DNA of 32,000 bases from Ferroglobus placidus DSM 10642 (GCF_000025505.1 NC_013849.1:390001-422000); one strand, 5' to 3'; counted from the stretch's first letter, positions 3,307 to 25,775 are shown. The notes: a model not told the origin generated them from the sequence alone. A program made the numbers and translations.

Positions 3307-3390
3307 TCTCTCTACCACCTCTTCTACCTCTTTCTCTCCTTCTCTCGCTCACACACTCTCCCTTCACCTTTTGCCCTTCACACCACCTAC

Positions 3391-4239
3391 CTAACCACCC
3401 ACAACAACCTTCGCTGAGTTGTAGTTTTTGGGCATGGTTGTTCTGTTTGCAATCAGCTCGTAGAGGGCCAGAATGTCCTCTCTCTCAAGAAGCTTGGCAG
3501 GAATACCACCTCTCCTCAGGCCCGATGCAACAGTCTCAACCCTCCTCTTCAGCTCCCCTATCGCCACCTCCTCCGTTTTCTTCGGGACTGTTACAACCAC
3601 AAAGTACCTCCTCATGATCGCTGTCCTCACATCCTCATCAAGCCCTGCAAGGTACGCATGCGCAAGCTCACTCAGAATGGGGTTTGCGGCAATATCCTCG
3701 TCCTTCAGCCTCAGCATGAGCCTGTTTAGATACCTTCCAGCATTAAATTCTGCAGCTATGCTCAGGATCTGAATTGGAAAGTCGAGGCTGTCAAGGGTTG
3801 ATTTGAAAGAGTCGAGGAAGGCTCTCTGATCTGCAGGTGTTGAGTAGAAGAAGTTTACCGGCTGAACCTCTATTATGGCTCCATACCCATCCTTCATCCT
3901 CATTACCCATCCATCAACGAAGTCTGTGGAGGGAAGGTATTTTGTTGTGTCGAGCTCGTGGGCGTACACAGCTTTCTTCCTTGCTGCAAACCTCGCCTCA
4001 TATAAAGGAAACATGTATCCCACCTCCTCGGGCATCATTGCCTTCATAAATACAAGGAAGGCGAACACTCCTGCCGCTACAGCTACCGACACCACCCCAA
4101 ACCCCCTGAGCAGTATCCACACTGACGAGGAGATCAGGAAGAGCGTCAGGATCTCCACGGGTGTGAACAGCCCGAACAGCTTTGACTCTGCCTGAACCAC
4201 TGACGGAAACTCAACCACTCTCAGCCCTGTTCCCTGCAT
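3391..4239 (-). CDS. membrane protein: VirB3/PrgI-like TM hairpin fused to a VirB4-N-terminal-like domain (tentative)
   Basis: ATG 4239 lies ~25 nt from a TATA-like box; the track ORF extends to TTG 4323. TM hairpin: SKLFGLFTPVEILTLFLISSSVWILL / VVSVAVAAGVFAFLVF. The soluble part (GYGAIIEVQPVNFFYSTPADQRAFLDSF..DFPIQILS; RRYFVVVTV) resembles the extreme N-terminus of Gram-positive-type VirB4. Confidence 0.7.
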   Translation of the reverse strand: MQGTGLRVVEFPSVVQAESKLFGLFTPVEILTLFLISSSVWILLRGFGVVSVAVAAGVFAFLVFMKAMMPEEVGYMFPLYEARFAARKKAVYAHELDTTKYLPSTDFVDGWVMRMKDGYGAIIEVQPVNFFYSTPADQRAFLDSFKSTLDSLDFPIQILSIAAEFNAGRYLNRLMLRLKDEDIAANPILSELAHAYLAGLDEDVRTAIMRRYFVVVTVPKKTEEVAIGELKRRVETVASGLRRGGIPAKLLEREDILALYELIANRTTMPKNYNSAKVVVGG

Positions 4240-4256
4240 ATTGTAAGTATGCACAA

Positions 4257-4270
4257 AAAATAATATATTC
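4257..4270. promoter_or_regulatory. near-palindromic TATA-like box shared by divergent genes (4239 minus, 4305 plus)
   Basis: aaaataatatattc sits in the 65-bp divergent intergenic region, at the spacing expected for archaeal TATA-to-start distances. Confidence 0.45.
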
Positions 4271-4304
4271 TTTACGCAAACTATTATTACTGGAGGTGTG
4301 TGCC

Positions 4305-4793
4305 TTGCAGAATCATGAACCAATGGGTGGGGGAAATGGTGGTAGAAAAAGTGACGACTGGCAGCAAAACCATCAGCTGACCGGGCAAGACGACTGGGGC
4401 GGTGATGGTGTTTACAGCGGCATAGATATCGCTAAAGACATCCAGAGGCTTGCTGTTGCAGTGGAGGACGGAGACAGCATAGAAATATGGAGGCTCCTCA
4501 GAAAGATTATACATGTGATGGAAGTGTGCAAACTCAAACCCGGGCCCGGAGAGGAGGAGTTGAAAGAGCTGATGCGGTGTCTTGAAAACCTCAGGGAAAT
4601 TGTTACGCCACGGGATTTTGCAATTCTCGGCAGCGCCATCTACCTGATCGAGCTTGTTCTCTGGCTTGTTCACGAGTGTCAGACTGAGAGCCGGATTGCA
4701 TCATGCTTTGTTGGGGAGCTTGCAGGAATACACAGAGAATACACTCAGCTGCTCACCGGGACGAAGATAAGTACAGAGAGTACAGAGAGGTAA
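4305..4793 (+). CDS. hypothetical protein (predicted helical)
   Basis: In-frame TTG 4305 lies 6 nt after a perfect GGAGGTG (4292-4298); ATG 4323 is an alternative start. The track start 4182 would overlap the divergent gene. First gene of the plus-strand pilin/oxidoreductase cluster. Confidence 0.6.
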   Translation: MQNHEPMGGGNGGRKSDDWQQNHQLTGQDDWGGDGVYSGIDIAKDIQRLAVAVEDGDSIEIWRLLRKIIHVMEVCKLKPGPGEEELKELMRCLENLREIVTPRDFAILGSAIYLIELVLWLVHECQTESRIASCFVGELAGIHREYTQLLTGTKISTESTER

Positions 4794-4879
4794 GAATTGT
4801 CTAATGATGTCTAAGGGTCAGCTACCTGTCGCTAAAGCATGTGGGGGCTTCCTTGCGGTTAGAGGTGTGGTGATAGAGT

Positions 4880-5302
4880 ATGGTGAACAAGATTATAGGT
4901 GAGCTGCTCCTCATAGCGCTGATGATTGCAGCTGCAGCTGCTCTGGCATTAGCAATCTCCCCTCCCTCGACAAAGCCCGCATACGAGATAAAGGTGGAGG
5001 ATGCCTATCCTCCAACATCATCGCAGGAGCTGTTTAACGTGATCATGGTGTCAGGGGAAATACGGTACAGCAACCTCAAGGTGAGGTTGATAAACGCAAC
5101 AACGGGCGATGTGGTTGATACAGCCACCTACAACGGAAATCTTGCGGGAGGTGTTATATCTGCGGAGATAAAAGATACCGACGGCTACTTCTCCACCGGG
5201 GACTTCCTGAGGTTTAAGGGCTCCATTTCGCCGGGGATTTACAGGGTGATCATCACAGATGACAGATACGTTGCTTTTGAGGGGTTGCTGAAGATACAGT
5301 AG
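4880..5302 (+). CDS. small exported/anchored protein with N-terminal hydrophobic helix, possible archaeal pilin-like protein
   Basis: The N-terminus MVNKIIGELLLIALMIAAAAALALA is followed by a beta-rich domain. A GGTGAT SD lies 5-6 nt upstream. The class-III signal is atypical, so the pilin call is tentative. Confidence 0.6.
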   Translation: MVNKIIGELLLIALMIAAAAALALAISPPSTKPAYEIKVEDAYPPTSSQELFNVIMVSGEIRYSNLKVRLINATTGDVVDTATYNGNLAGGVISAEIKDTDGYFSTGDFLRFKGSISPGIYRVIITDDRYVAFEGLLKIQ

Positions 5303-5400
5303 GTTGGATCCTTGGAAGAGAATGGCTGCTGAAGATACCTGAGAAAGCTGGATGGGATGAGGTGAGTTTGGAGTGAAAGAAAAAGAGAAAGAAATAGGAG

Positions 5401-5808
5401 GTGAGGCCTATCAGATCTAAAGCCACGCTTGTGTTTGTATTTGCAATCCTTCTGAGTGCTGGGCTGGCCTTCTACATCTACACGCTGAACGCCGACGTCA
5501 TCAACAAGATTAAACCGCATCCACACCAGAACACATCCGTGTACTTCTTCTACTCCCACTACTGCCCCCACTGCAGAGAGGTGATGCCATACGTTGAGGA
5601 CGTTGCGAAAAAGGTTGAAAAAAATGGTGTGAGTGTAACCTTCTGCAGTGTGGACGAAACCATGCCACAGAGCTGTAAGAGGGTTGCCAAAGATATTCAT
5701 CTGTCTGCTGTGCCCACAGCTGTTGTTTACAGTAATGGGAGTAAAACGCTGCTTGTTGGGAGTGATGAAGTCAGAACGCTCGGGAAGGTGCTTGGAGTCG
5801 AACAATGA
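5401..5808 (+). CDS. membrane-anchored thioredoxin-fold thiol:disulfide oxidoreductase (CPHC, DsbA-like active site)
   Basis: N-terminal TM anchor (ATLVFVFAILLSAGLAFYIY), then YFFYSHYCPHCREV and a downstream VPT cis-Pro-type motif. The GTG start is embedded in GGAGGTGA, so the start is uncertain. Confidence 0.75.
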   Translation: MRPIRSKATLVFVFAILLSAGLAFYIYTLNADVINKIKPHPHQNTSVYFFYSHYCPHCREVMPYVEDVAKKVEKNGVSVTFCSVDETMPQSCKRVAKDIHLSAVPTAVVYSNGSKTLLVGSDEVRTLGKVLGVEQ

Positions 5809-5837
5809 ATTGAAATAAAAAACAACTCGGTTTAAGA

Positions 5838-5978
5838 TCAAAAAATCAAGATCTCTCCCTCCTCAGGATCCTCAGACGGTTCCAGAAATTCTACTTCAAG
5901 CACGAATTCCCCATTCAGTCCGCTCTCTTCACTTCCGCTGCCAACCACTTCCTCTACAAGCTCAAGCACCTCTATCAT
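5838..5978 (-). CDS. possible 46-aa acidic small protein
   Basis: ORF below the track cutoff: MIEVLELVEEVVGSGSEESGLNGEFVLEVEFLEPSEDPEEGEILIF. A TATA-like cttatatat lies ~25 nt upstream (leaderless geometry) and a T6 run follows the stop. Confidence 0.3.
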   Translation of the reverse strand: MIEVLELVEEVVGSGSEESGLNGEFVLEVEFLEPSEDPEEGEILIF

Positions 5979-6158
5979 ACTATATACTACACACACAGAT
6001 ATATAAGCATCATTAGTGTTCTGAAAGTGGAAAGAAGAAAAAACGAATGTAAATCTTTTTCTCTGTTAGAAAAGCGATAATGGCCGACTAAAGGAGGAAT
6101 AATAACTGGAAAATTGACTAGATACACAATAGTCATTTCTCAACCCCTCTCACTAGCC

Positions 6159-6892
6159 TCATAGCAGATCCCATAACAGCGAGCTCAGGAAAACCAGCAG
6201 ATCCCCGAAAAAGATGGCGAGAACAAATCCTGCTGTTATGAACACAAGAAATGGTATCTGCGGAGTTACCCACACCCTCTGACATCCTGCCTTTCTGAGC
6301 GCTTCAAGCTGAGCAGGATCTGGGTCTATCCCTCTTCTGAGATTCACAACCTCTCCACCCCTCACCACCTGGAGAAGGTAGTGAAATCTGGGGAAGTTTG
6401 AAACTTCCACACGATAACCCATCAGAAATCCAACAGGATGCTCCTTAAAGGCTGAAAATCCCTCTTTTAAGTTTCTGAGGACAAATACAATCATTATAAA
6501 CGGTGTTGCGATGAGGGAGTTCGTGAGGACTGTGAGGGTAAAAATTCCGAATCCTTTATTGAGAATGGGTAGCGGTGGTGCTGGTGGTGTCAGTTCAGGA
6601 TAGAAGGGGAAGGTTAATGCGAGGACCATAACTGCCTTTGCATCAGCGCCCCCCACGCACCGATACGGTAGAAAAGGTAGGCCAGAAAGACCATATAAGC
6701 GGATCCAGCAGCACCGAAAATTAGCTGATTTGTATTTGCCTCCGCTATTGTGAGGGGGGAGAGGGTGATAAGCATCCACTTCCAGACTCTGTTCGGAACC
6801 CTTCTCTCCTTCAGATCAAGAAAGGAGGAATAGACGAGGAAGGTGGTTGCAATTGAGAGTTTAAGCAGATAGACAAGGGTCAGGGGCTGCAT
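6159..6892 (-). pseudogene. archaeal prepilin/preflagellin peptidase (A24 family, FlaK/PibD-like) interrupted by a frameshift
   Basis: The first catalytic Asp motif FLDLKERRVPN is in track ORF 6614..6901. The second, GGADAK, is in the overlapping frame of ORF 6159..6779. The frames join at a C6 run (6649-6654); one extra base would give ...FYRIGAWGGADAKAVMVLAL... Confidence 0.8.
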
Positions 6893-6919
6893 TAACACCA
6901 CTCCCTATCTTGGTGAACT

Positions 6920-6928
6920 AAAAAAAAA
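6920..6928 (-). terminator. T9 run on the minus strand after the pilin gene (possible archaeal terminator/attenuator)
   Basis: A9 on the plus strand at 6920-6928, between the pilin stop (6953) and the peptidase start (6892). Confidence 0.35.
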
Positions 6929-6952
6929 GAAGTTTGTTAAGGCCAAAAAATT

Positions 6953-7441
6953 TTAGCTTATCATGACGTTCTGGTCGACCATTGGCTGCATTGTGGGCTT
7001 GTAGTACAGCACGACCTCGTATGTTCCTGCAGAGGGATTGCTACCAAGTACAGTGTTCTTTGCAATTATCTCTTCACCGCCCTCGAAGAAGTTTTTGTTG
7101 TATCCGGTAGCAGAGAGCTGGTCTAGTGTGACGTTAACACCGTTGGCCGTGGCAACATCCTCGCTGTACAGCAGGGTGTGGTTACTGTCATACACTGTGA
7201 GAATTATGTCTGAGAACAAAATTCTGTCCCCACCGAGGTGCCTCACAACGAACGCATAGGTGTTCGCGCTAAGAGGATCTGGATAGTCTACGACTTTGAA
7301 CTGGGCGCTTGGTGGCTTGTTGAAGTTCATCAGACCTCCCATAAACGCCGCAACCACCGCCACTCCAACAACGGCCACTGCTATTAGCAGGGCCACCACT
7401 ACTATCTGGCTTATACCCCTCTCGTCCTTCACAAACCCCAC
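6953..7441 (-). CDS. archaeal type IV pilin-like protein (class III signal peptide, DUF1628-type)
   Basis: N-terminus MGFVKDERGISQIVVVALLIAVAVVGVAVV, plus a VRHLGGD motif typical of this family. GTG start with GGAGGTG 5 nt upstream. Confidence 0.85.
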   Translation of the reverse strand: MGFVKDERGISQIVVVALLIAVAVVGVAVVAAFMGGLMNFNKPPSAQFKVVDYPDPLSANTYAFVVRHLGGDRILFSDIILTVYDSNHTLLYSEDVATANGVNVTLDQLSATGYNKNFFEGGEEIIAKNTVLGSNPSAGTYEVVLYYKPTMQPMVDQNVMIS

Positions 7442-10697: not shown

Positions 10698-11021
10698 ATG
10701 AGGGAGGAAAGTAGAGATGCAATGCGGGTGTATCTTAATAAAATTGGAGAGTTTGAGCTTTCGGATAGTTTGGCATTCAGCGTCTCATATGACGAACAGG
10801 GTTTGTGGTGTGTGGAAAACGATGAAGTAGAAATATATGGGTACGGTTCAACTTTTCATGAGGCTGTAAAAGATTTGGAGGAGAGTTTGAGGTCATTGTT
10901 AATTGGATTTCTTGCTTTCCCAGATGAAAAGCTCAATGAGCGATCGAAGGAAATAAAATTAGCCCTATCCAAATACATAAACATAGATAAATATAAAAAA
11001 GTGTATGATCCCTTAAGGTGA
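10698..11021 (+). CDS. HicB/UPF0150-like small protein (tentative)
   Basis: FSVSYDEQGLWCVENDEVEIYGYGSTFHEAVKDLEESL resembles the HicB-type antitoxin fold. ATG 10698 follows GGAGG; no HicA partner was seen. Confidence 0.4.
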   Translation: MREESRDAMRVYLNKIGEFELSDSLAFSVSYDEQGLWCVENDEVEIYGYGSTFHEAVKDLEESLRSLLIGFLAFPDEKLNERSKEIKLALSKYINIDKYKKVYDPLR

Positions 11022-12215
11022 GTTCCCCTTGCCTACAATTACCCTCCCATCAGGCAGTGTTGCCACATACACCCATCCAGCTTCGAGGTATGAGTCGATT
11101 TCTTCAGGCCTTACAGCCTTCTGCTTCGGTTCAACACCTTCATCTCCTCCTTCAGCTGTTCTTGTCTGCAGGAAGAACATTGCTGCCCTCTCGTACTTCA
11201 GCCTCATATCCTCAACAAGTGATTCAGGCAGCCTGTTCTTGTTTGTTGTATACTGATGCTCTATATCCCCCTTGTGCCCCATCCAGAAGACCCTGTAGTC
11301 TTCAGGAATTATTCCTGCTGCCTCCGCCATAAGCATGTAGGTGTCGAAGTAGTGCCTCAGCACATAGGGGCGCCAGTCAAAGCCGGCAATTCTTATAGCC
11401 TTTCTTACAGCATTGGAAATGCTTGCAGTTCTAAGAAAGCTGGTGCCAGCCCTCCCGGAAATCAGAGGTGAGGAGGGTGTGAGCTTCTCCCCCTTCCTTA
11501 GCCGCATGCTGAGGTAATCCTGCAAGTATTCACATCCCTCCTCACACAGAAATGTGAAGTACTGGTGCCCCGCCTTACTGAGGGATGATCTGACAACAAC
11601 CATCGCAGGAGTGTTGATAAACTCCACTCTATCCCCTATCCTCAGCTCCGGAACATCTCCAATCCTCAATCCATCCTCACCCCTGTAATCTCCAAGAACG
11701 CCAAGGCGCACTCCTGCAAAGGCTATGAGGGCTATCGCCGCCCTAACCCTCAAATCGGCTTTCCACAGCACTTTCCTCAGCTCTTTTTTTGATGGTACCC
11801 TCTCAGTCTCAGAAACCCTTGTCCTGTGGACATCCTTAATCCTGATGTGGACGTTGAAGGGGCGGTTGTGAAATCTGAACCAGCTCTTCAGCACCTTCAC
11901 AAAGGATATGGCATAGCTTCCAGACTTATCCTCAAGGGATGTGATGTAGTCCATCAAAACGTCTCTGAGCCTGCTGTCCTCCATATCCAGCAGCATTTCC
12001 GGATCTATGTCTGTGTCCCTGCAGAACTTTGCGAGCCTTTTCAGGTAGAGGTCTGCGGTTGCAGGAGATCCCCTTGCCAGATTCCTGTACCATCTCAGCA
12101 CGCTGCTGATTTTCAGCAGGTCTCTGTAGCTTGTTATAGCTGGCGGGTTTTGATCCTGCTGCCGCCACTGCCACGGCGGGTTTTGATCCTGGCCCTGATC
12201 CTGGTCCGGATCCAT
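11013..12215 (-). CDS. tyrosine recombinase / integrase
   Basis: C-terminal catalytic signatures: AFAGVRLG, HVLRHYFDTYM, WMGHKGDIEHQYT. ATG 12215 has an AGGTGGTG SD and lies 17 nt after the SF2 helicase stop. The Q/D-rich N-terminal tail is unusual. Confidence 0.85.
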   Translation of the reverse strand: MDPDQDQGQDQNPPWQWRQQDQNPPAITSYRDLLKISSVLRWYRNLARGSPATADLYLKRLAKFCRDTDIDPEMLLDMEDSRLRDVLMDYITSLEDKSGSYAISFVKVLKSWFRFHNRPFNVHIRIKDVHRTRVSETERVPSKKELRKVLWKADLRVRAAIALIAFAGVRLGVLGDYRGEDGLRIGDVPELRIGDRVEFINTPAMVVVRSSLSKAGHQYFTFLCEEGCEYLQDYLSMRLRKGEKLTPSSPLISGRAGTSFLRTASISNAVRKAIRIAGFDWRPYVLRHYFDTYMLMAEAAGIIPEDYRVFWMGHKGDIEHQYTTNKNRLPESLVEDMRLKYERAAMFFLQTRTAEGGDEGVEPKQKAVRPEEIDSYLEAGWVYVATLPDGRVIVGKGNSP

Positions 12216-12232
12216 AACACCCACCACCTGCT

Positions 12233-13747
12233 CTACCTCACAACCTCAATCCTGAACCCGCGCTCTGTAATGGCGTAAAGCCTCTTCTGGTACTTCTCAA
12301 ACTCCTCTTCAGTCATCAGAATTATGTGCTCTGGCTCCTGCTTTTGAGAGTGCATGAGTCTTCCGAAACGCTGGCTCTCCTGCATTCTGCTGCCTCCAAG
12401 AAATGCAATCTCCACCACTCTCTCCACATCTCCTATGCTGATACCTTCATCACCAACCCTTGAAACCACACAAACCTCAGAATCTCTTATGATATCCATC
12501 CTGTTCTTTGTCTCGCCATAAACGAATGGAACGCCGAACTCCCTTGCAATCCTCTTGCCGAAATCGATGCTGTCGCAGAAGATGATCGTTTTTGCAGGAA
12601 TTTCCAACAGATCCCTGAGCTTCCTCAGCTTCTCTCTCTCACTGTCTACAATGTACAGCTTGAACACCGGTTCTTTAACAACTCCTTTCTCCAGCAACTC
12701 ATCCCACGATAAGCCGACTGGAAAGCCTGTAAGGGCGAAAATGTAGTTCTCCCTTTTGTCTTCTCTGAAAGGGCTTCCGCTAAGCCCGATTCTGTATTTC
12801 GTTTTAATCGTTGCAAGCCTTATGAAGGTGTTGGCTGGGAGATGGTGCACTTCATCAAAAATTGTCAGCGTAAACTCCTTTTTTGCAACTTTGTGGTATG
12901 AGTGGTAGGTTATGACCTCTATTTCGCTGGCATACTCAGGGATGTACTTCCTTATCCTCTCTTCCCACTGCTCTACAAGTGTTCTTGTTGGCACTACAAC
13001 AAGCTTTTTGCCCTTAATCCTCGCAAGAGCATAAACACCGAACAGGGACTTGCCCGCTCCGAATGGCCAAAATATTCCCACAGCCCCCTTATCCAGGAAC
13101 TCTTCCCAGGCCTTTTCCTGATATGATCTCAGCTTGATTTCATCCCACTCCCTTAAATCCTCATCACTGACCGGCTGCGGGATAAACGGAAGGATGCCGT
13201 CCTCGATCAGCTTTGCTATCAGCTCGAATTCGTATCCTTTCTTTATCTTTATCCTGTCCTCGCCCTCTCTCCTCAGCAGATACTTCCTGTATTTCCTCCA
13301 CGCCTCATCCTGATGCTCCCTGCCCGTCCACAGAACACCGTCGATAACCTTGTAAGGCTTAACTTCCGGAAACTTCAGCCTCTTTTTGATGTTTTCAGGG
13401 AGTGGGTAGAGCCACTGGGTGTATCGGTTAATTACAAAGATTCTGTAGGCTTTTGTTTCTCTCTCAAGCCAGCCGATGTTGAATCGGATAAATTTTGGAA
13501 CAATGACATAGTACTCATCCTTTCGCTTTGGCAGGATTAGATACGGTTCCTCCAGGAACTCCTCAATCAAACTACCAACATCATCCTCAAGGTTTAGAAT
13601 CTGGAGCTGGCTGAGTTTCTCCTCAAGTTCCCTCTCAAACCGCCTTTTCTCCTCCTGCAGCAGGGCCACAAGTTCATCCAGTCTTGAAATCCCCTTCTCA
13701 ACATCCTCCACAACCCTTCTGATTTCACCGTCAGCGAGCACCTTCAT
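12233..13747 (-). CDS. SF2 DEAD/DEAH-box helicase (XPB/Rad25/COG1061-like) with unknown ~230-aa N-terminal domain
   Basis: Walker A FGAGKS, DEVH box (IFDEVHH), and later motifs SGSPFRED and QESQRFGRLMH. ATG 13747 has a GGTGA SD; the track start is 13834. Confidence 0.85.
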   Translation of the reverse strand: MKVLADGEIRRVVEDVEKGISRLDELVALLQEEKRRFERELEEKLSQLQILNLEDDVGSLIEEFLEEPYLILPKRKDEYYVIVPKFIRFNIGWLERETKAYRIFVINRYTQWLYPLPENIKKRLKFPEVKPYKVIDGVLWTGREHQDEAWRKYRKYLLRREGEDRIKIKKGYEFELIAKLIEDGILPFIPQPVSDEDLREWDEIKLRSYQEKAWEEFLDKGAVGIFWPFGAGKSLFGVYALARIKGKKLVVVPTRTLVEQWEERIRKYIPEYASEIEVITYHSYHKVAKKEFTLTIFDEVHHLPANTFIRLATIKTKYRIGLSGSPFREDKRENYIFALTGFPVGLSWDELLEKGVVKEPVFKLYIVDSEREKLRKLRDLLEIPAKTIIFCDSIDFGKRIAREFGVPFVYGETKNRMDIIRDSEVCVVSRVGDEGISIGDVERVVEIAFLGGSRMQESQRFGRLMHSQKQEPEHIILMTEEEFEKYQKRLYAITERGFRIEVVR

Positions 13748-13914
13748 ACTCTCACCTTTTGGCCAAGGTCTGGAGCCGCAGTTTGGTCGCCGCAGTTTGT
13801 CGCTGCCACACACCCTCACCACTCTCTTCTCCACTCTCTTCTCACAACCCGCTCACGTCAGATCCTGTGCTGAGCTCACTGGAGAGCAGGTGCTATCGCA
13901 GCCTTCACCCACTC

Positions 13915-15744
13915 TCACACTCCCGCGCCTCCGCCTGCAGATGCAGACGCAGATGCAGCTGAAGTAAGACCCTTAACAAGGAACACAGACCTTTCCCTGT
14001 TGCAGAACTCAAGAAAGTCCCTGAGCACACCACCTCTCGACCTTATCCTCCTCCAGTTCCCCACCACAATCAACTTTTTCCTTGCCCTTGTAAAGGCAAC
14101 GTTCAGCCTGTTCGGATCTGCAGCGAACCTGAAGTTTCTGGTTGCCGTAACGGTGAAGATAACAACATCCTTCTCCCTCCCCTGGAAAGCATCCACAGTC
14201 CCAATCTCAACCGACCTGCCCATCACCTCCTTCAGCAGCTCAACCTGTGCTCTGTAGGGAGAGATGCACGCAATCTCCTGCTCAGGAACTCCTGCCTTCA
14301 CGAGCTCCTCAACCAGCCACCTGCACACCTCCACCTCACTAACATTTGCCTTCGATCCATCCATAACCACCTCTTCCCCCTCAACGCTGACAAAGACAAC
14401 CGGTTTGTCGGGGGAGAGTGCGGGCTGAACATGCTTTCCCGTCTCAAGAACAATGCTCCTGCATGACTCATCAGGCTGAATGCTCTCCTCATAGAAAAAC
14501 CTTGTAAGGGAGGCTATCTTGCTGTTGCTCCTGTAATGCCTCTTCAGCCACTTCACGCGGTGAGGATACTTGTTTTTCAGGTAGATGAACGCGCTGTATC
14601 TCCGTGCATCTCTTACAGACCTCAAAACGGGGAGGAGCTGATGGTGGTCGCCAACAAGCACGTACTTTCTGGCTTTAACCATGCCGAGCAGGGCCAGGCT
14701 TATGCTCACCTGACTTGACTCATCTATCAGCACCGTGTCAAACTCAACATTCTTCACGGGCCAGAGGTTGGACTTTATCAGGGTTGTGCCAACAATTTTC
14801 GCCTCCTCCACCACCTCCTCCTCAGCTGCTTTGAGCAGTTCCGCCCTCTCGTGGTACAGAAAATCCAGCCCCATGCTGAGAAAGACCTCTCCCCACCCTC
14901 CCTTCTTCCTCCTTCTCATATTCTTTTTAATCCTCTCTACCTCTCTGTCCAGCTGTTTAAGCCTCCTTCCCACTCCCTCCTTTTCCCTTGCCCTATTTTC
15001 GATGAGATAATCCTTCATGCTCTCAGAAACCCTCTCGGGCCTGCCCACTCTGACGGCCATGGATGGGTGCAGCCTCTCAAGGGCAGTATCAACCGCCCTG
15101 TTTGTGTGGGAGGTTATCAGAACCTTCTCTCCCTGATCTGCAAGCTCAAGTGCTGCCCTTGAAATGACCCTCGTTTTCCCCGTTCCAGGCGGGCCAACCA
15201 CAAGGAGCAGCTCTCCCTCCTCAAGGGCAAGAATGGACTCTACCGCCTCTTTCTGAAACTCATCCAGGCCAACACCCACAATCCTCTTTCTCGCAATTGC
15301 TGGAGGGAGTTTTGCTTTGCCGAAAACAACCTCGGAAGCCATCTCCTCAAGCGGATCTGCAGCACCGTGGATAATCTTCTCCAGGAGGTTTATCTGGAGA
15401 TCATAACCCACTAGGTTCTCGGATTTAAAGACCAGAAGAGACTCTTCATTAAATGCGAGAGGAGAGGTGGAGTAAACAACCGCCGTATCATCATACCTGT
15501 CGACAACAAAACCGAGGTTTACAGGCCTATCCAACAGCACACCGACAGTGTCCCCCACATCAAAAAGCCAGAAGTCCTTGACGAGGTGGACTTTCCCAAC
15601 TGTGTATATCCTGGAGGGTGTAGCTCCAGCTCCAAGCCCTTCCTCCCCAAATATTTCCTTCTCCACCTCTTTCACAGCCAGTCTCCTCTCCTCAAGAACC
15701 AGCTGCAAAAGCTCCTCCAGCATGCTCCTGCCAACTCTCGCCAT
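13915..15744 (-). CDS. SF1 Upf1/DNA2-NAM7-like helicase (paralog A)
   Basis: GPPGTGKT, LITSHTNRAVD, VLIDESSQ, LVGDHHQLLPV, TVDAFQGREKDVVIF, NVAFTRARKKLIVVGN. Start chosen at ATG 15744 (TATA-like ggttataaaag at 15781-15791); the track start is 15780. Confidence 0.88.
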   Translation of the reverse strand: MARVGRSMLEELLQLVLEERRLAVKEVEKEIFGEEGLGAGATPSRIYTVGKVHLVKDFWLFDVGDTVGVLLDRPVNLGFVVDRYDDTAVVYSTSPLAFNEESLLVFKSENLVGYDLQINLLEKIIHGAADPLEEMASEVVFGKAKLPPAIARKRIVGVGLDEFQKEAVESILALEEGELLLVVGPPGTGKTRVISRAALELADQGEKVLITSHTNRAVDTALERLHPSMAVRVGRPERVSESMKDYLIENRAREKEGVGRRLKQLDREVERIKKNMRRRKKGGWGEVFLSMGLDFLYHERAELLKAAEEEVVEEAKIVGTTLIKSNLWPVKNVEFDTVLIDESSQVSISLALLGMVKARKYVLVGDHHQLLPVLRSVRDARRYSAFIYLKNKYPHRVKWLKRHYRSNSKIASLTRFFYEESIQPDESCRSIVLETGKHVQPALSPDKPVVFVSVEGEEVVMDGSKANVSEVEVCRWLVEELVKAGVPEQEIACISPYRAQVELLKEVMGRSVEIGTVDAFQGREKDVVIFTVTATRNFRFAADPNRLNVAFTRARKKLIVVGNWRRIRSRGGVLRDFLEFCNRERSVFLVKGLTSAASASASAGGGAGV

Positions 15745-16014
15745 CTCTATCCCCCTTCTCAAGGAGACTTTCTGCGCCATCTTTTATAACCTTTTTGGTT
15801 CATTTGTCCTGCATTGAGTGAACATATCAGTTTACCATTAATCAAATAATGGAACCACTATTACAAAATACTGTAACGGATTTACCCTTATGTTTTGATG
15901 GCTGTTCTGTGGGGTTTTACTTTAATAAAGTATTCTGGAGGCTTAGAGGCGAATGTTTAATGCCGATCACTCTCCGGTCACTTTCATCTGGGCAGGAGCT
16001 GCTGTTACAGCTTG

Positions 16015-17811
16015 TTACGGCTTCAACCACCTTTTCCTCTCCCAGTCGTAAATCCCTCCCACCTTGTACACGTATTCAAGGAACCTGCAAAGCAAGCTGT
16101 CCGATTTTGTAATAGCTCTTCCATTCCCGACCACAATCAACTTTTTCCTTGCCCTTGTAAAGGCAACATTCAGCCTGTTCGGATCTGAGACGAAATTCAT
16201 GTTTCCTGTGGCTGTAACACTAAAGATAACAACATCCTTCTCCCTCCCCTGGAAAGCATCCACCGTCCCAACCTCAACACCCTTCACCCTTTCAGCAATC
16301 CTCTTCCTCTGGGCTACATATGGGGAGATAACACCTATCCGTCCCGGGCTCAAGTACCTCCTCAGCTCTCCGACAAGGCTAACACAAACATCTACCTCCT
16401 TAGAATTGAACTTTGATTGTCCTTCCCTCTCCTCCTCTCCTTCAACATGGACAAAAACAACTGGTTTTTCATTTAGCACAGGGATGCTGCTCCTGATTTT
16501 CAGAATCTGTTTCCAGCACTCCTTTGCTGGCTCAATCTTTCCCTCATAAAAGTGCTCAGCAGAAAAGCCTATGATGTATGGATGACTCCTCCTGTGAACT
16601 CTGAGCATCTTCATGCGGTGCGGATACTTTTCCAGAAGGGATACGAAAGCTGAAAGCTTCTCCGAATTCCTCAGAGTTCTGAATATCGGCAGGAGCTGTC
16701 TGTCGTCCCCAACCAGAACCCACTTCCTTCCCTTAACCATCCCCAGCAGTGCAAGTGTTATTGAAGCTTGGCTGGACTCATCGATTATAACAGTGTCAAA
16801 GTCTGTCTCGGAAAGGGGATACAGCTGGGATTTCACAAGTGTTGATCCTATAACAGGCATTTTTTCAACAAGCTCTTCCGAAGTTTTCCTTAGCATGTTA
16901 TTCCTTTTTCTGTAAAGCTCTTTTAAATGCTCCTTGTACTTCCTCCTCACTTCATTTAGCTTTGCTTTCTCGAATCCCAAAGCCTTCTTTGCATCTTCCT
17001 CAATTTTAAGCAGCAGTTTTAGGGTTTTACCTATCTCTCCCTCAATTTCTTCCAACTTATCTCCTAAGCCTTCTCTGGCCTTGCATCCAAGCAGGTATTT
17101 TCTTATGCCAGGCAGAACTTTCTCAGGCCTTCCAACTCTCAAGGCCACACCTTCTGGAAGCTCCTCAACTGCATTGTCAACAGCTCTGTTTGTGTGGGAG
17201 GTTATCAGAACCTTCTCTCCCTGGTCTGCAAGCTCATACGCTATCTTTGCTATTACAACCGTCTTCCCGGTTCCTGGCGGGCCCCTGATGAGCAGGAGTT
17301 CGCCATCCTCCAGAGCCAGGGCTGCCTCAACAGCCTCTACCTGAGACTCGTCAAGCTCGTATCCTTTAACGTATTTGTTTCCCAGTTCAGCCCTTCTGAT
17401 TTCTCCAGCTTTTAAGTCATCAAAGAACAGACTTACCGCTCCCTCTCCTTCAAGTTCTCCGCTTTCTATCCTTTCTATCAGATCAATCTGCAAGTCAAAG
17501 GCAATTAAGGGCTCATAATTCGTTATCCTTAAATCCCATCCCTCCGCCAGCTCCAAGCTGGTGAAAACTGTTAGAATGTCCCGGGATGAATCCACAACCG
17601 TCCCGAGCTGCCTAATGGCTATCTCCCCTCCCCGACCAAGAACCAGGCCGAGAACATCACCGGGCTCAAAGAGATTTGCATATCTCGATTCCAGCGTTGC
17701 AATGCTTTCCGAAGTGTCAAGGACTTGGGCGGGGAGAATTAGCCTGAGCACGTCTTTCACTGCCCGCTCTCTTTCCCTGACAAGCACATCCTTCAGCAGT
17801 TTTACCTGCAT
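16015..17811 (-). CDS. SF1 Upf1/DNA2-NAM7-like helicase (paralog B)
   Basis: Same motif set as paralog A (GPPGTGKT, VIIDESSQ, LVGDDRQLLPI, TVDAFQGREKDVVIF, NVAFTRARKKLIVVGN). Roughly half the residues are identical to paralog A by eye. Confidence 0.9.
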   Translation of the reverse strand: MQVKLLKDVLVRERERAVKDVLRLILPAQVLDTSESIATLESRYANLFEPGDVLGLVLGRGGEIAIRQLGTVVDSSRDILTVFTSLELAEGWDLRITNYEPLIAFDLQIDLIERIESGELEGEGAVSLFFDDLKAGEIRRAELGNKYVKGYELDESQVEAVEAALALEDGELLLIRGPPGTGKTVVIAKIAYELADQGEKVLITSHTNRAVDNAVEELPEGVALRVGRPEKVLPGIRKYLLGCKAREGLGDKLEEIEGEIGKTLKLLLKIEEDAKKALGFEKAKLNEVRRKYKEHLKELYRKRNNMLRKTSEELVEKMPVIGSTLVKSQLYPLSETDFDTVIIDESSQASITLALLGMVKGRKWVLVGDDRQLLPIFRTLRNSEKLSAFVSLLEKYPHRMKMLRVHRRSHPYIIGFSAEHFYEGKIEPAKECWKQILKIRSSIPVLNEKPVVFVHVEGEEEREGQSKFNSKEVDVCVSLVGELRRYLSPGRIGVISPYVAQRKRIAERVKGVEVGTVDAFQGREKDVVIFSVTATGNMNFVSDPNRLNVAFTRARKKLIVVGNGRAITKSDSLLCRFLEYVYKVGGIYDWERKRWLKP

Positions 17812-17943
17812 ATCTCACCACTCCGCTGGAGACCAACCAGCCTTCTTCTCCAACCTCCTCAAACCCGGCTTTATTTTACCATTTTACTCTATCGGGAAAG
17901 CGGAGGGAAAAAGTTTATGTCTGCGAGATGAAATGAAGAAGGT

Positions 17944-18255
17944 ATGGGGGATACAGCAATAGTGCTTGTAGGACTGCTTATCGGCCTTGTGCTGGGATTG
18001 AGCGGTGTGGCAACTCTCCTCAATCTTATGAGTGATGTCGTAAGCAATGCACAGACACAGCTCTCACAGCTCGGAGCTGCATCAACCATCATCCTTCTGG
18101 TCATGGCCCTGATACTGATAATAAAGGTCAGAGTTCTCTCCTCTTTAATCGTGGGAGCAATAGTAGGGGCTGTGGCAGAATTTATACTGGAGGCAAATGG
18201 CATCCACATTTTTGAGGCAATTAGATCGGCAGTTTTTGGGTTATTGGGATCCTAA
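17944..18255 (+). CDS. small integral membrane protein (about 3 TM helices)
   Basis: 103-aa hydrophobic ORF with a TATA-like aaaagtttatg ~30 nt upstream. Divergent from the helicase operon. Confidence 0.65.
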   Translation: MGDTAIVLVGLLIGLVLGLSGVATLLNLMSDVVSNAQTQLSQLGAASTIILLVMALILIIKVRVLSSLIVGAIVGAVAEFILEANGIHIFEAIRSAVFGLLGS

Positions 18256-18578
18256 GCACCAGTCCCGAATTGGGATCTCAAGCACAATTCCGAGGGCTGG
18301 CAAGAACAATGTACCTCCATCCTCTCTCAAGCCTTGCCAGGCCGCTACCATTATCAGAGCTACTGACTCTTATCTGCTTACCACCTGGCCCCGATCCTGC
18401 GATCTGACCCAACAACCTGGCCCAACACACGGAGGTAATAAACCTACTGTAACCAACCAGGGTGCGTCCCACTCTTGTCCTTTATATACATGTGAGAGAT
18501 ACCAGATCTCAGCCAAAGTTTAAGCATGCTATTACGTCCTTCTCTTTATAAGGCTTTATAAAGGGTGCAGCTCGGACA

Positions 18579-19084: not shown

Positions 19085-19888
19085 TTAACTCTCACACCCG
19101 ATCCCATCCCCGTCTCCATCAAAGTGATGAGGATCCGGTGGCAGAACCCTGAAGTTCCTGTAGGGTATGTCCTTGCAGTCCAGATCTGGTGGGGGAGGAG
19201 GGATGCATACATCCGGATAGGAGGGGTCGCAGTTTGGTGTTGTGGTAGTAGTGGCAGGGGTAGGGGTAGCTGTGGTTGTGGGCGCGGGCATGCAGCTCCA
19301 CAGCCCCAATCTTTCCGCCATCGCCTTCTCCTGATACCTCACGTACTCCTGCTCCTTCTTAAACTCCCCCTCTGTGTAGGCCCTCGCATATCCCTTCTTT
19401 ACGAGCTCCGCCGTGAAATCAGTCCCGTTTTGAAGGTAAACGTATGCAAGGAGCCTGCCGTAGTATCCTCTGAGTCCTGCAAGCTCGTCAAACTCAATAT
19501 AAACGTACTTCCCCTCAAGCTTTCCCGTGAACTCCTTTGCCTTCATCCCCCAGTTTGCAAGGCACTGCAGATCCGTGATGCTGTCATACTCGTATGGTTT
19601 GTTGTCGCTGGCAGATTTCTCAGGGGTGTCAACTCCCAGAAACCTGACCCTCTCCTTCTTACCGTTGAATAGAACATCCATCGTGTCACCATCTATAACA
19701 TCAAGGACCTTAACCAGATATTTCTGGCCGTAAATGATTGGCTGGTCCGTCTGTGTTGTGGAAGCAGCAGGTACGGCTGCAGTTGTAGTTGTTGGAGATG
19801 TGGTCTGAGGACTCTGCTCAGCACATCCTGCAAGTAATGCTGCAAGCAGCAAAAAGAGAAGAAGCAGAACTGATTTTCCAATCTTCAT
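19085..19888 (-). CDS. secreted thermonuclease (staphylococcal nuclease fold) with C-terminal Excalibur Ca-binding domain, lipoprotein signal
   Basis: LLAGCAEQ lipobox; VIDGDTMDV..RVRFLGVDTPE; YGRLLAYVY; C-terminal PPPPDLDCKDI..DPHHFDGDGDGIGCES. Confidence 0.88.
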   Translation of the reverse strand: MKIGKSVLLLLFLLLAALLAGCAEQSPQTTSPTTTTAAVPAASTTQTDQPIIYGQKYLVKVLDVIDGDTMDVLFNGKKERVRFLGVDTPEKSASDNKPYEYDSITDLQCLANWGMKAKEFTGKLEGKYVYIEFDELAGLRGYYGRLLAYVYLQNGTDFTAELVKKGYARAYTEGEFKKEQEYVRYQEKAMAERLGLWSCMPAPTTTATPTPATTTTTPNCDPSYPDVCIPPPPPDLDCKDIPYRNFRVLPPDPHHFDGDGDGIGCES

Positions 19889-19996: not shown

Positions 19997-20308
19997 TTAA
20001 GGTATTTCCCTCATCCTCAAAAAATCCCTGATGAGCAGTAGATCTTTCTTCCCTTCCTCAAATTTTTTCTCAATCCTGTGCCTCATCACCCTTATGTGGT
20101 TCTTCCAGTCTCCTTTACTGCTCCATTTCTCCCTGAACTCCTCAACACTCATCTCCCCCGCCTTAACCTTCTCAAAATCCTCCAGAAAAGTAGATCCCTC
20201 CTTTCTCGATGCCCATTTTCTGTAAAACTCAAGCCTGTCCATTTTTCCGCTGGTGACTCTCATCCAGTCCTGAATGAACTCCCTCTCCCGCTTTGTGAGC
20301 AACCCCAT
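19997..20308 (-). CDS. hypothetical protein
   Basis: The ORF is open to TTG 20359. ATG 20308 (MGLLTKREREFIQDW...) fits a leaderless start ~25 nt from the TATA-like ttttataaaa (20327-20336). The start is uncertain. Confidence 0.5.
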   Translation of the reverse strand: MGLLTKREREFIQDWMRVTSGKMDRLEFYRKWASRKEGSTFLEDFEKVKAGEMSVEEFREKWSSKGDWKNHIRVMRHRIEKKFEEGKKDLLLIRDFLRMREIP

Positions 20309-20561
20309 ATTACTGGTCATTTCTCTTTTATAAAATCGTTGATCCCCCTCCGTGGTCAAATCGATGCAAAGAGGGCGGTTTACATAAACGACTACCTGTA
20401 CATTATTGCTGCAGACAGGGTTGTAGCTTACGATGAAAATACATGGGAGCAGGCTGGTGAAGTCAGGATTTAGGGTCAGAGCTTTCTGATGATGGACAAC
20501 CTTTCCAAACTCTGAAAATTACCCCCTTTCAGCCCCAGCGAATCTCTCTATTGTTCGCTCT

Positions 20562-20789
20562 TCAACATCTCCTCACTACCGCATCAACCAGCTCGATTTC
20601 ACTCCTGCTCACTTCACAGAAGGCGAGAATTTTTGGCAAATTATTAAACAGCCTCTCCAGCTCTTTTTCTTTTTTCCTGACATCTCCCTGTATGATAGCC
20701 TCAGAAATAATTTCGCCCAGATGATTGAGCTGGATGTAGTAGATCCTCGCTTTTGACAGGTTAGAATTCATGCAGCTGACTGTCTTCAT
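20562..20789 (-). CDS. hypothetical small protein
   Basis: ATG 20789 is preceded by CAGGAGGGCCTGGT (SD). It overlaps the 3' end of the upstream gene by 29 nt. The track ORF start 20912 is unlikely. Confidence 0.5.
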   Translation of the reverse strand: MKTVSCMNSNLSKARIYYIQLNHLGEIISEAIIQGDVRKKEKELERLFNNLPKILAFCEVSRSEIELVDAVVRRC

Positions 20790-21576
20790 ACCAGGCCCTC
20801 CTGATGGTCTTCTCGAAAACAAGGAATCCACTATCTCTGAGCTTTTTGATGAGGGAGAGGGTTTTGTCCAGCGCTGGTTCTGGCAGCCTGCAGTTATAGT
20901 TGTCGTAGCCAATGTAGATCATGAGCGGGTTGATCTTCTCAATCTTCCTCCAGAATTTGGGGCTGAAGTCAAGTATGGGTTCTATAGACAGAAACTTCAT
21001 GTCCCAGTCCAGCTCAAACATGGCCTTTATCCTCTCACCCGGTTTAGGGGCCTTGGAAATTTTGTATATCTCATTCCTGTCAGTCTCTATTGTTGCACCC
21101 AGTATAGCATTCTCAGGGAAATTGAAGTCAAGATACCTTGATGGGTTTTTGGTCAGAAACAGGAAGAGGGTGCTGGAGAATTTACCTGCATGCTTTAAGA
21201 CGGTTTCAATCCACTCATCAGGTACAAATTCTCCAAAAAGATCGCCCATGTCGCTCACAAAGACAACTCCACCCCTGAACTTTTTGTTGAGCTCCTCCCT
21301 GTTTAATCTCGGGATGAAGCCGTTGCTGTACCTCTTGCTGTTTCTTAATCTGGTTTCGGCCAGCCTTCTCGCCCAGCAGTATGTGCAGCTGTGCTCACAT
21401 CCTGTAACTGGGTTCCATGTTTCAGTCACCATGCTGAACATCTTTGTGCTGTCTTCGTGCTCCAGCAGCTGCTTCAGCAGTGATTTGAGTCTGGAGAATT
21501 TTTCAGGCTTTGAATCTTCCAGCACAGAAACTGCATCTGTAACTGCTTCTACCTTTGCTCTTACCTCTGAACACAT
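20761..21576 (-). CDS. phage Gp37/Gp68-like (DUF5131) protein with CX3CX2C radical-SAM-like cluster motif
   Basis: TWNPVTGCEHSCTYCWARR, VFVSDMGDLF and LFLTKNP match my memory of the DUF5131 family. ATG 21576 lies 6 nt after AGGAGGTG. Confidence 0.7.
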   Translation of the reverse strand: MCSEVRAKVEAVTDAVSVLEDSKPEKFSRLKSLLKQLLEHEDSTKMFSMVTETWNPVTGCEHSCTYCWARRLAETRLRNSKRYSNGFIPRLNREELNKKFRGGVVFVSDMGDLFGEFVPDEWIETVLKHAGKFSSTLFLFLTKNPSRYLDFNFPENAILGATIETDRNEIYKISKAPKPGERIKAMFELDWDMKFLSIEPILDFSPKFWRKIEKINPLMIYIGYDNYNCRLPEPALDKTLSLIKKLRDSGFLVFEKTIRRAWYEDSQLHEF

Positions 21577-21685
21577 CTCAGCCACCTCCTAATCTGTTGT
21601 GCAGCATACCCTTAAAGTTATTCCCCGAGAATGAATGTGGGAGTTTCACAAACCTCATAAATCCGGTCCTTAAAGGGATTTTCAG

Positions 21686-21768
21686 GCGGGGGTTGCCGAG
21701 CGGACAAAGGCGCAGGATTGAGGGTCCTGTCCCGCAGGGGTTCGAGGGTTCGAATCCCTCCCCCCGCA
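21686..21768 (+). tRNA. tRNA-Leu: tRNA-Leu (anticodon GAG), no encoded CCA
   Basis: Hand-folded cloverleaf: acceptor GCGGGGG/CCCCCGC, anticodon stem CAGGA/TCCTG with loop TTGAGGG, 14-nt variable arm, T arm GAGGG-TTCGAAT-CCCTC, discriminator A. Confidence 0.92.
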
Positions 21769-23375: not shown

Positions 23376-24170
23376 GTGATGAAGATGTCAGGAGGTGAAA
23401 TTACCGTGAGCGTTACATTCTCCTTCAGCGTGAAGAACGGCGATAAGGAGCTCGTCCAGAAAATTATGGCTTTCAAGGAAACCGGAAACCTCTCAGCCCT
23501 TGTGAACAAGCTTCTCCGGGCGTACTTCGACGGCAAGATCGAAGATGTGTTTGAAACCAAAGCTGAGACTAAAACTGAAAGTGGTGGGGGTGAGATCGGT
23601 AATCAGTCTCAATCCTTTCAAGACCTTCACAGCGAGATTGCTGAGGTCAGGAAAGGGATTGAAGAGCTCGTGTCGAGGGTTGAGGGGCTAGTATCGAGGA
23701 TTGAGAACCTGGAGTTGAGAGTTGATGGGCTGGAGAGGAAGAGGCTTGAGGAGCTTGTGGCGGGTGAGATGCATGCGCAGGCTGCAGCGGGTGCAAATAG
23801 TGTGCAGGCATCTCAGGGTGAAGATAGAGGAGGTGAAACTGAGTATAAAACAGGCCAGGATGAGGGAGCTGAGAGCGTAGAGGAAGAGGAGAAGGAGAAG
23901 AAGGAGAAGGAGGCTGTTAAACTTATAAACCCTCACCAGACCAAAGAGTCTGAGGAAGAGCTCATCAAAGACCTCAGAGAAATTGTTTTCGACGATCTGA
24001 GCAGAAAAGGAGTGGAAAGGTTCATCAACTGGTGTGAAAATAAGGGCTGGGAGCCGGACTACATAGTTAAAGCAAGACTGGAGAATTTTGCAGATGATAA
24101 GAAGATCAGCATTGAGAGAGCTCGTGAGTTATTCCTCAAGGCCTTCCCGGAGTGCGAGGAGCTCGTGTGA
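23376..24170 (+). CDS. ribbon-helix-helix (CopG-like) N-terminal domain protein with coiled-coil and acidic linker (paralog 1)
   Basis: VTFSFSVKNGDKELVQKIMAFKETGNLSALVNKLLRAYF has a strand-helix-helix pattern, followed by heptad-like VEGLVSRIENLELRVDGLERK. Possible starts are ATG 23385 or GTG 23406 (7 nt after AGGAGGTGA). Confidence 0.7.
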   Translation: MMKMSGGEITVSVTFSFSVKNGDKELVQKIMAFKETGNLSALVNKLLRAYFDGKIEDVFETKAETKTESGGGEIGNQSQSFQDLHSEIAEVRKGIEELVSRVEGLVSRIENLELRVDGLERKRLEELVAGEMHAQAAAGANSVQASQGEDRGGETEYKTGQDEGAESVEEEEKEKKEKEAVKLINPHQTKESEEELIKDLREIVFDDLSRKGVERFINWCENKGWEPDYIVKARLENFADDKKISIERARELFLKAFPECEELV

Positions 24171-24225: not shown

Positions 24226-24666
24226 GTGAGGGTTGTATTCTCCTTCAGCGTGACGGATGAGGAGCTCGTCCAGAAAATTATGGCTTTCAAGGAAACCGGA
24301 AACCTCTCAGCCCTTGTGAACAAGCTTCTCCGGGCGTACTTCGACAACAATGGTAGAGTGGATTTTGAGAATGTGGTTAGTCTCGGAAACCTTCAAAACT
24401 CTCGTAACATCCACAACGAGTTCGCAGAATACAGAGGAAAGCTTGAGGAGCTGGAGTCAAGAATTGTGAAGCTGGAGAGGAAAATATATGGAGAGAGTGG
24501 TGAGAGCAGACAGTGTAGTAATGTGGAGGGGAGGGGGAGTGGAGAGAGCATCAGTTCTGCCAACAGTACTACTGAGACTGCTACTGAGATTGCAGAGACG
24601 GAAGAAAAGTCCAAGCCCGTCAGAAGGTTCAAGGTTGTTTTTGAAGATGCAAGCAGAGAGGGGTAA
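24226..24666 (+). CDS. ribbon-helix-helix (CopG-like) N-terminal domain protein with coiled-coil (paralog 2)
   Basis: VVFSFSVTDEELVQKIMAFKETGNLSALVNKLLRAYF is nearly identical to paralog 1. GTG start after GGAGGGGG. Confidence 0.7.
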   Translation: MRVVFSFSVTDEELVQKIMAFKETGNLSALVNKLLRAYFDNNGRVDFENVVSLGNLQNSRNIHNEFAEYRGKLEELESRIVKLERKIYGESGESRQCSNVEGRGSGESISSANSTTETATEIAETEEKSKPVRRFKVVFEDASREG

Positions 24667-25718: not shown

Positions 25719-25775
25719 AAATATTACTATACGTAATTGGTCACTGATTTCAGAATCCTTTTTATTTTGGTCAGT
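25719..25775. repeat. 57-bp direct repeat, copy 1
   Basis: aaatattactatacgtaattggtcactgatttcagaatcctttttattttggtcagt has one mismatch to the copy at 26085-26141. Confidence 0.9.

Follow-up and report, generated by a model that had tools for sequence, protein, structure and literature searches.

Three helicase genes and an integrase gene lie side by side on the minus strand of a 32,000-nucleotide stretch of the Ferroglobus placidus DSM 10642 genome (GCF_000025505.1, NC_013849.1:390001-422000; hereafter the window). This block is probably a mosaic: one end of a conjugative-type archaeal element that has integrated into the chromosome (or of what remains of such an element), the end that serves integration and DNA processing, with helicase genes of different origin added beside the integrase gene. 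It is a fairly ordinary arrangement and not a dedicated three-helicase machine. Gene neighbourhoods show the family of the superfamily 2 (SF2) helicase otherwise travelling alone in archaeal viruses, proviruses and plasmids. They also show the integrase and one of the two superfamily 1 (SF1) helicases recurring together in one related element, alongside homologues of TraC/VirB4-like, pilin and prepilin-peptidase proteins.

In the direction of transcription, the block begins with SF1-a (16015-17811), which encodes an intact Upf1/IGHMBP2-like SF1B helicase of 598 amino acids (aa). It is followed by SF1-b (13915-15780), a 621-aa open reading frame (ORF) for a Upf1-like SF1B helicase of an orthologous lineage distinct from that of SF1-a. 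Next come SF2 (12233-13747), encoding an XPB-like helicase of 504 aa from the ATG at 13747 in a frame that stays open to a GTG at 13834 (533 aa), and int (11013-12227), encoding a tyrosine integrase of 404 aa from a GTG, or 400 aa from the ATG at 12215 in its database form. Three of the four products are 100% identical to annotated proteins of F. placidus DSM 10642 (P0121, P0001, P0241). The initial annotation, made from the sequence of the window, had described four co-oriented minus-strand genes of these helicase classes plus an integrase, and Pfam matches, ORF coordinates and invariant residues bear this out; likewise, no nuclease, phospholipase D (PLD), methylase or primase domain was detected in the four proteins with Pfam, NCBIfam or PADLOC. 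All four genes are intact and look functional: when relatives are aligned, neither the helicase nor the recombinase motifs vary.

SF1-a and SF1-b are parted by a 234-nt AT-rich spacer with TATA-like boxes (15781-16014, minus strand), and a TTATAAAA box can be read ~3 nt upstream of the first SF1-b ATG. Because of the position of this box, the true start of SF1-b is probably an internal methionine, M13 or M20, and spacer and box together suggest both this internal start and a separate, probable promoter for SF1-b, SF2 and int. An operon of these three genes, with SF1-a transcribed alone, is plausible. The gap between SF1-b and SF2 is GC-rich, and a GGTGA lies 5 nt upstream of the SF2 ATG. Between the SF2 stop codon (TAG, 12235-12233) and the next ATG, that of int at 12215, there are 17 nt, exactly as first reported, and the two genes may be translationally coupled. 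The linkage of SF2 and int proposed at the outset appears likely, since the same junction survives with an ATGA overlap in a relative described below.

Comparative synteny indicates that the three helicases and int are not a conserved unit. The SF2-anchored set comprised 32 loci, some of them duplicates (~30 contexts; 8 loci from long contigs and 24 from IMG/VR), and neither an SF1 gene nor int was found near SF2 in any of the 32. A 72%-identical Archaeoglobales copy of SF2 likewise lacks both, as does a split copy (42.7% identity) on a Halobacterium megaplasmid. Among 82 int-anchored loci, an SF1 gene was present in one (L120) and SF2 in none. Close SF1-a orthologues occur in three distinct contexts, two without SF2 and int and the third with decayed remnants only, and no SF2 or int gene was found at 88 loci of more distant SF1 relatives. 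Directly upstream of int, L119 and L120 have a gene for a 216/220-aa protein (72% identity between the two), L121 and L122 have a homologue of the window gene at 19997-20359, and SF2 stands there only in the window and in L009. Because its occupants differ, this slot is variable, and SF2 is one of several genes that fill it.

Outside the window, the order SF1-a…SF2–int was found in a single metagenome-assembled genome (MAG), Archaeoglobales archaeon ex4484_92 (L009/L010). There an intact SF1-a orthologue comes first, and a toxin-antitoxin pair on the opposite strand separates it from what is left of SF2. This SF2 remnant has a frameshift and no N-terminal half. The int gene overlaps the SF2 stop (ATGA) and is then interrupted by a type I HsdR gene; its preserved part was put at the first ~42 codons, or up to about residue 81. 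SF1-b is absent. The SF2–int junction is thus old, but selection has not preserved the block, as the absence of SF1-b and the decay of SF2 and int in this genome show.

These comparisons bear directly on the proposal of the initial annotation that SF1–SF1–SF2–int form one functional module, either a replication/transfer apparatus or a system directed against mobile elements. Co-orientation, the tight 17-nt spacing of SF2 and int, the junction kept in L009, the order shared by two genomes and the intactness of all catalytic motifs would agree with such a module. However, its components lie apart almost everywhere (~30 SF2 contexts, 82 int loci and 88 loci of distant SF1 relatives), and the only other genome with the order has no SF1-b, an intact SF1-a and pseudogenes for SF2 and int. 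Within the window itself, the promoter-like spacer separates SF1-a from SF1-b. A single module is therefore very unlikely. That annotation had named scattering of the trio without conserved synteny as the outcome that would speak against it, and this is largely what was found: scattered components in no conserved order. No description of the four-gene block was found in the literature returned by our searches.

The mosaic reading draws on the genes to the left of the block, where a conjugation/pilus-type module occupies 503-7441, largely on the minus strand, with matches to Pfam AAA_10, P-loop_TraG, TraC_F_IV and Pilin_N. It includes genes for a VirB4-like ATPase (503-2338, minus strand), a TraC-like protein (3391-4323, minus), a pilin-like protein (4880-5302, plus), a prepilin-peptidase-like protein (6159-6779, minus) and a second pilin-like protein (6953-7441, minus). 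The first four of these are 80%, 67%, 58% and 36% identical, respectively, to genes of the MAG contig L120. The order in L120 is an SF1-b orthologue (58.6%), a gene for a 216-aa protein, int (64.7%), and genes for a pilin, a TraC-like protein, a VirB4-like protein, a type IV secretion system coupling-protein-like protein and a prepilin peptidase. The helicase encoded two genes upstream of int in L120 is the closest SF1-b relative found; the 216-aa protein between them is Cys-rich and has no homologue in the window. Because this gene set is shared with L120, the left part of the window and the stretch from SF1-b to int appear to belong to one family of conjugative-type elements. The mobile-element context that the initial annotation had assumed is thus supported by the genes of the window as well as by L120. 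We note that the conjugation/pilus set of L120 lies at 11500-18400 and that the TraC-like and VirB4-like proteins of this shared set resemble a split VirB4.

Several points weigh against the mosaic reading. The status of SF1-b as part of the element backbone depends on a single locus, L120. No relaxase, coupling protein or element ends were found in the window, and a search there for attachment (att) sites gave no long direct repeats and no copy of either tRNA-Leu end, so the case for integration as a single element is one from gene content only; one end may lie outside the window. The only tRNA gene of the window, Leu-GAG (21686-21768), is 9.5 kb from int and on the opposite strand. Finally, L009/L010 shows that at least the order SF1-a…SF2–int was once inherited or transferred as a unit, either from a common ancestor or on an element that both genomes acquired.

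Archaeal integrative and conjugative elements (ICEs) that carry VirB4/VirD4-like genes and an integrase, and whose cargo of DNA-metabolism genes is variable, have already been described (PMC5797428). Like ICE-1 and ICE-2 of Ca. Nitrosocaldus cavascurensis (PMC5797428), the family represented here unites ATPases of the VirB4-like and coupling-protein-like kinds with pilus proteins, a tyrosine integrase and a variable load of genes for DNA metabolism and defence; its coupling-protein-like gene was found in L120 and not in the window. It differs in that int in the window is internal rather than at the edge of the region, with no ends or att sites found, and in carrying Upf1- and XPB-type helicases where ICE-1 has a primase–SF3 helicase fusion (PMC5797428).

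The integrase matches PHROG integrases (E 1e-13) and is XerA-like in its N-terminal part (NCBIfam), and its match to Pfam Phage_integrase (24 bits) falls below the cut-off of 27.1. The catalytic residues R174, K218, R291, H318 and Y326 are invariant in 21 relatives and Y288 is nearly so. These 21 close relatives also share a C-terminal tail of ~45 aa (KQKVV..EEID.YLE.GWEYVTTLPDGRVIV). In the wider family (42-46% identity, ~425 aa), a tRNA gene for Arg-GCG, Gly-CCC, Gly-TCC or Gly-GCC precedes int by 65-100 nt in the same orientation (L128, L134, L160, L188, L190), and many metagenome contigs begin ~200 nt before the integrase gene. Such positions are classical for an integrase at the edge of an element, and int of F. 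placidus belongs to this large archaeal family of tRNA-associated integrases. A scan of IMG/VR with the int alignment returned no relative; single-protein scans of IMG/VR with SF1-b and int also returned nothing, the patterns being too specific.

The SF2 helicase matches ResIII and ERCC3_RAD25_C (Pfam), and its motifs GAGKS (Walker A), DE(V)H, SGSP-x-RED and QxxGR (motif VI) are invariant in 40 family members. An AlphaFold2 (AF2) model (predicted local distance difference test score, pLDDT, 75.7) has a long helix (residues 6-50), an alpha/beta domain (57-124), a beta-beta-alpha-beta-beta-alpha unit (133-182) and two RecA domains. Its top Foldseek matches are eukaryotic and archaeal XPB. The protein shares the two-RecA core with archaeal XPB (A. 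fulgidus 2fwr; S. tokodaii XPBII 5tnu and 6p4f), which it matches best in the PDB by sequence as well as by fold; it also has Walker A, DEVH, motif VI and, following motif III, the RED motif. By contrast, the N-terminal ~185 residues, a coiled-coil helix plus an alpha/beta domain, are specific to the family: sequence matches to the solved archaeal XPB structures in the PDB start only at about residue 185, and no Pfam or PHROG family covers the region. The SF2 protein also has no counterpart in sequence alignment to residues 255-304 of St-XPBII (~50 residues), which we take to be the region of the thumb motif. When residues 1-185 were compared with 1.84 billion representative proteins, 227 matched, and among the matches listed the domain stands at or near the N-terminus. 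Ten longer proteins with this domain were scanned; all 10 were XPB-like helicases, 7 of them with inteins or homing-endonuclease domains. The initial annotation had recognised no motif in the N-terminal domain of any of the three helicases. This description still fits the SF2 N-terminus, which is by these comparisons a family-specific domain, unlike the SF1 N-termini, which proved recognisable (see below). The best structural matches among predicted viral proteins are SF2 helicases of filamentous viruses (Sulfolobales Beppu filamentous virus 2 and a betalipothrixvirus), aligned over ~590-606 columns and most of both proteins, but these matches are weak (TM-scores 0.33-0.34, identity 18-21%).

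Relatives of the SF2 protein are ~497 aa long and 60-72% identical across archaeal phyla, with hosts among the Archaeoglobales, Methermicoccaceae, Bathyarchaeia, Heimdallarchaeaceae, Aenigmarchaeota, Iainarchaeum, Methanomethyliaceae and Thermoproteota. They occur on 24 IMG/VR contigs. One belongs to a tailed provirus that also encodes terminase, portal and capsid proteins (L003/L004), another is encoded beside PCNA and a PolB exonuclease (L007), and a D5-type primase lies near a third (L005). Many members of the family (window gene 12233-13747; loci L001-L035) contain inteins or homing endonucleases (LAGLIDADG, HNH). Fragments of DUF5131 were also observed in the viral contig L007. No full-length sequence relative of SF2 was found in 50,697 deposited phage and archaeal-virus records, and the literature found by our searches does not describe the family. 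Its family-specific N-terminus, its 60-72% identity in at least eight archaeal lineages and its frequent invasion by inteins are the basis for a tentative suggestion, which we regard as possible rather than probable, that SF2 is an undescribed pan-archaeal hallmark helicase of viruses and mobile elements, a key factor in replication or recombination, or in counter-defence, that passes between very distant hosts. The fusion-like coupling to an integrase seen in Archaeoglobales would in that case represent one mode of deployment among several.

The XPB-like core also raises the question of whether these are housekeeping repair helicases, that is, host XPB and Dna2/Upf1-like genes that merely happen to lie near int. 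The RED motif of SF2 would agree with this, as would the chromosomal location of SF1 relatives in Methanomethylicia, Infirmifilum and Zestosphaera, one SF1 relative lying by a uracil-DNA glycosylase (UDG) gene with AGOG nearby. The SF2 protein, however, scores only 113.5 bits, in three partial stretches, against the NCBIfam equivalog for repair XPB (NF045503, repair_heli_XPB; cut-off 610). A Pfam scan of 20 surrounding proteins gave no match of the Bax1 type, the immediate neighbours of SF2 being int downstream and SF1-b upstream. Moreover, the N-terminal domain differs from that of cellular XPB, and members of the family travel with viruses, proviruses and plasmids, are often split by inteins and are 60-72% identical across phyla. 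Both SF1 proteins fall below the cut-off of their own cellular family (TIGR00376), and the window is full of mobile-element genes. A housekeeping origin of the trio is very unlikely.

The two SF1 proteins match Pfam AAA_11 and AAA_12 with 117.6-147.8 bits against cut-offs of 27 (E 1e-34 to 4e-43). Against the IGHMBP2-family helicase model of NCBIfam (TIGR00376), whose alignment covers residues 48-585 of SF1-a, SF1-b scores 274.1 and SF1-a 264.6 bits, both below the cut-off of 348.9. In an AF2 model of SF1-a (pLDDT 92, predicted TM-score 0.90), a helix (3-21), strands (26-98, the 1B beta-barrel) and a further helix (100-116) precede the first RecA domain, so that the layout reads stalk helix plus 1B barrel (3-116), RecA 1A, a long helical hairpin (241-317) and RecA 2A. 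Full-length Foldseek comparisons with the cores of Upf1, IGHMBP2, Sen1 and Dna2 gave TMq values of 0.62-0.73 (0.70-0.73 for 4b3f, 2xzp and 2gk6). As modelled, the SF1 N-termini are the stalk and 1B beta-barrel of Upf1-like SF1B helicases; for SF1-b, alignment to SF1-a from residue 72 points to the same stalk and barrel. The whole architecture (stalk, 1B, 1A, helical insertion, 2A) is thus that of Upf1, IGHMBP2, Sen1 and Dna2. Differences from the Upf1/IGHMBP2 group are the absence of CH, R3H and nuclease domains, scores below the family cut-off and an archaeal, variable genomic setting. All helicase motifs are present in both proteins and invariant among aligned relatives.

SF1-a and SF1-b are paralogues, as initially described, with 47% identity over 551 residues. 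A recent tandem duplication was considered and rejected, because each has closer orthologues elsewhere (78% and 58.6%) than the other copy (47%). The two genes share a direct repeat (D2; 155 nt, 88% identity) that joins a tract in SF1-b (14057-14211, minus strand) to its partner in SF1-a (16124-16278). Over codons ~550-600, nucleotide identity between the paralogues is 83%, and where the encoded residue is the same the third position agrees in 82% of cases; the values for SF1-b and its own orthologue are 67% and 33%, respectively. Local gene conversion explains these near-identical stretches. A second tract pair of this kind was observed at 15071-15267 and 17159-17355.

Orthologues of SF1-a (78% identity) are found in Archaeoglobales as single genes in defence islands; they are 95-96% identical to one another, with differing upstream flanks. 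At one, an Hma-like operon with HmaC and HmaA matches ends on the SF1 start codon, and another is flanked by a type IIG restriction enzyme and BrxL. Type I restriction-modification (RM) genes, toxin-antitoxin pairs and RAMP genes lie nearby. Only five SF1 relatives were found in IMG/VR, all distant (28-32% identity), and the lineage does not appear to be virus-associated. Chromosomal relatives occur in Methanomethylicia, Infirmifilum and Zestosphaera, and a 51%-identical relative adjoins UDG with the AGOG repair gene ~6 kb away. In a profile search of genome contigs with the SF1 alignment, generic P-loop and motif-V patterns dominated and the matches were for the most part distant relatives from bacteria; this search, the source of the 88 loci without SF2 or int mentioned above, serves as a negative control only.

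One or both SF1 helicases, possibly together with SF2, might instead be defence cargo, anti-virus or anti-plasmid genes in a hotspot next to int. Their products would unwind invader nucleic acid or displace proteins from it, and would either need no effector or rely on one provided in trans. The neighbours of the SF1-a orthologues (Hma-like, type IIG RM, BrxL, type I RM, toxin-antitoxin and type III RAMP genes) would suit this idea, as would a prokaryotic Argonaute (pAgo) gene lying upstream of, and divergent from, the SF1-b orthologue in L120, and the near absence of the SF1 lineage from viral contigs. Both SF1 proteins also match the helicase part of Mokosh MkoA (PADLOC, E 1e-73 to 1e-78), and the PADLOC models of MkoA and MkoC match both strongly. 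Yet the MkoA match is limited to the generic helicase region (~612-1083 of 1112), the MkoA N-terminal regions are absent, and Mokosh (MkoA plus MkoB, or MkoC) has the PLD gene or domain that the block lacks. The match to Nhi is weak and partial (E 2e-7 to 6e-7) and no nuclease domain accompanies it. The poor fit to Mokosh and Nhi that the initial annotation had noted therefore stands after a PADLOC run on the block. In addition, neither the block nor the genes adjacent to it encode a PLD, nuclease or other effector, no partner gene is conserved, the relative beside UDG and AGOG points to repair instead, and location in a defence island is guilt by association. We consider defence cargo unlikely.

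Two apparent associations of the SF1 genes did not hold up. A conserved small partner gene upstream of SF1 was rejected, since L207, L011 and L009 have genes there that bear no relation to one another. An Hma-like operon (DUF499/HmaC ATPase, a small protein, an SNF2 helicase with NOV_C and a metallo-beta-lactamase-fold protein) was observed in Archaeoglobales (L116, 2129-10001), where it adjoins SF1-a, and in Methanomethyliaceae (L001, 1-7135), where it lies 2 kb from SF2. A link between SF1-a and SF2 through this operon was rejected: the two operons are 52-59% identical and the helicase lies outside the operon in L001, a pattern of co-location in variable regions.

Under the mosaic reading, int would insert and excise the element by site-specific recombination. 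SF2 would act as an ATP-driven double-strand DNA translocase or opener in replication of the element, comparable to XPB in DNA opening; this role is suggested because of the XPB-like core with its RED motif, the replication-gene neighbours in viral contigs and the frequent inteins. The coiled-coil N-terminus of SF2 might mediate oligomerization or the binding of DNA or a partner. The Upf1-like SF1 proteins would be 5'-3' helicases that either process the DNA of the element or are cargo interfering with competing elements. The helicases would have accumulated piecemeal next to int, with SF1-b, SF2 and int expressed from the TATA-like promoter upstream of SF1-b, and the three need not depend on each other.

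Other features of the window lie to the right of the block. A 120-aa protein without a convincing Pfam match is encoded at 19997-20359 (minus strand), and its homologues stand directly upstream of int in close int relatives: in L121 (6101-6421) and L122 (1801-2121) the homologue (49%) ends ~33 nt before int, and in L124, L125 and L127 it is near int. In the window, 7.8 kb separate this gene from int, with genes for a staphylococcal-nuclease-like protein (SNase) and a DUF333 protein, SF1-a, SF1-b and SF2 between them. The SNase is a secreted protein (19085-19888) with kin near the SF1-a orthologue of L011 (12067-13035, 58%) and the integrase relative of L127 (12019-13044, 65%), in differing orientations. 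A DUF5131 gene (phage Gp37/Gp68-type, radical-SAM-like) and tRNA Leu-GAG lie side by side within 20761-21768. Two adjacent, unannotated paralogous genes (23376-24170 and 24226-24666) share a 95-nt 5' stretch that is 97% identical, with coiled-coil repeats further on. An 81-nt AT-rich intergenic repeat occurs in two copies (25703-25783 and 26069-26149; 89% identical, 366 nt apart) upstream of a 714-aa low-complexity ORF and is possibly an origin or regulatory repeat. Among the compared loci, a gene pair of equal sizes (153 and 371 aa) lies beside pAgo in L120 (3404-4968) and beside a type I RM remnant in L009 (17085-18649); matched by size alone, it hints that the two regions share more of a variable island.

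As a three-helicase system the block matters little, and the comparisons are evidence against any such system. What they document in Archaeoglobi is a family of conjugative-type integrated elements whose DNA-processing genes are helicases, with no recognizable relaxase or primase, and this content bears on how archaeal conjugative elements process DNA. The SF1-a-type lineage of Upf1-like helicases is a stable gene beside rapidly changing defence hotspots and a possible marker of such hotspots in Archaeoglobales. The main by-product is an uncharacterized XPB-like helicase family that is unusually conserved across archaeal phyla, borne by viruses and plasmids and a frequent host of inteins.

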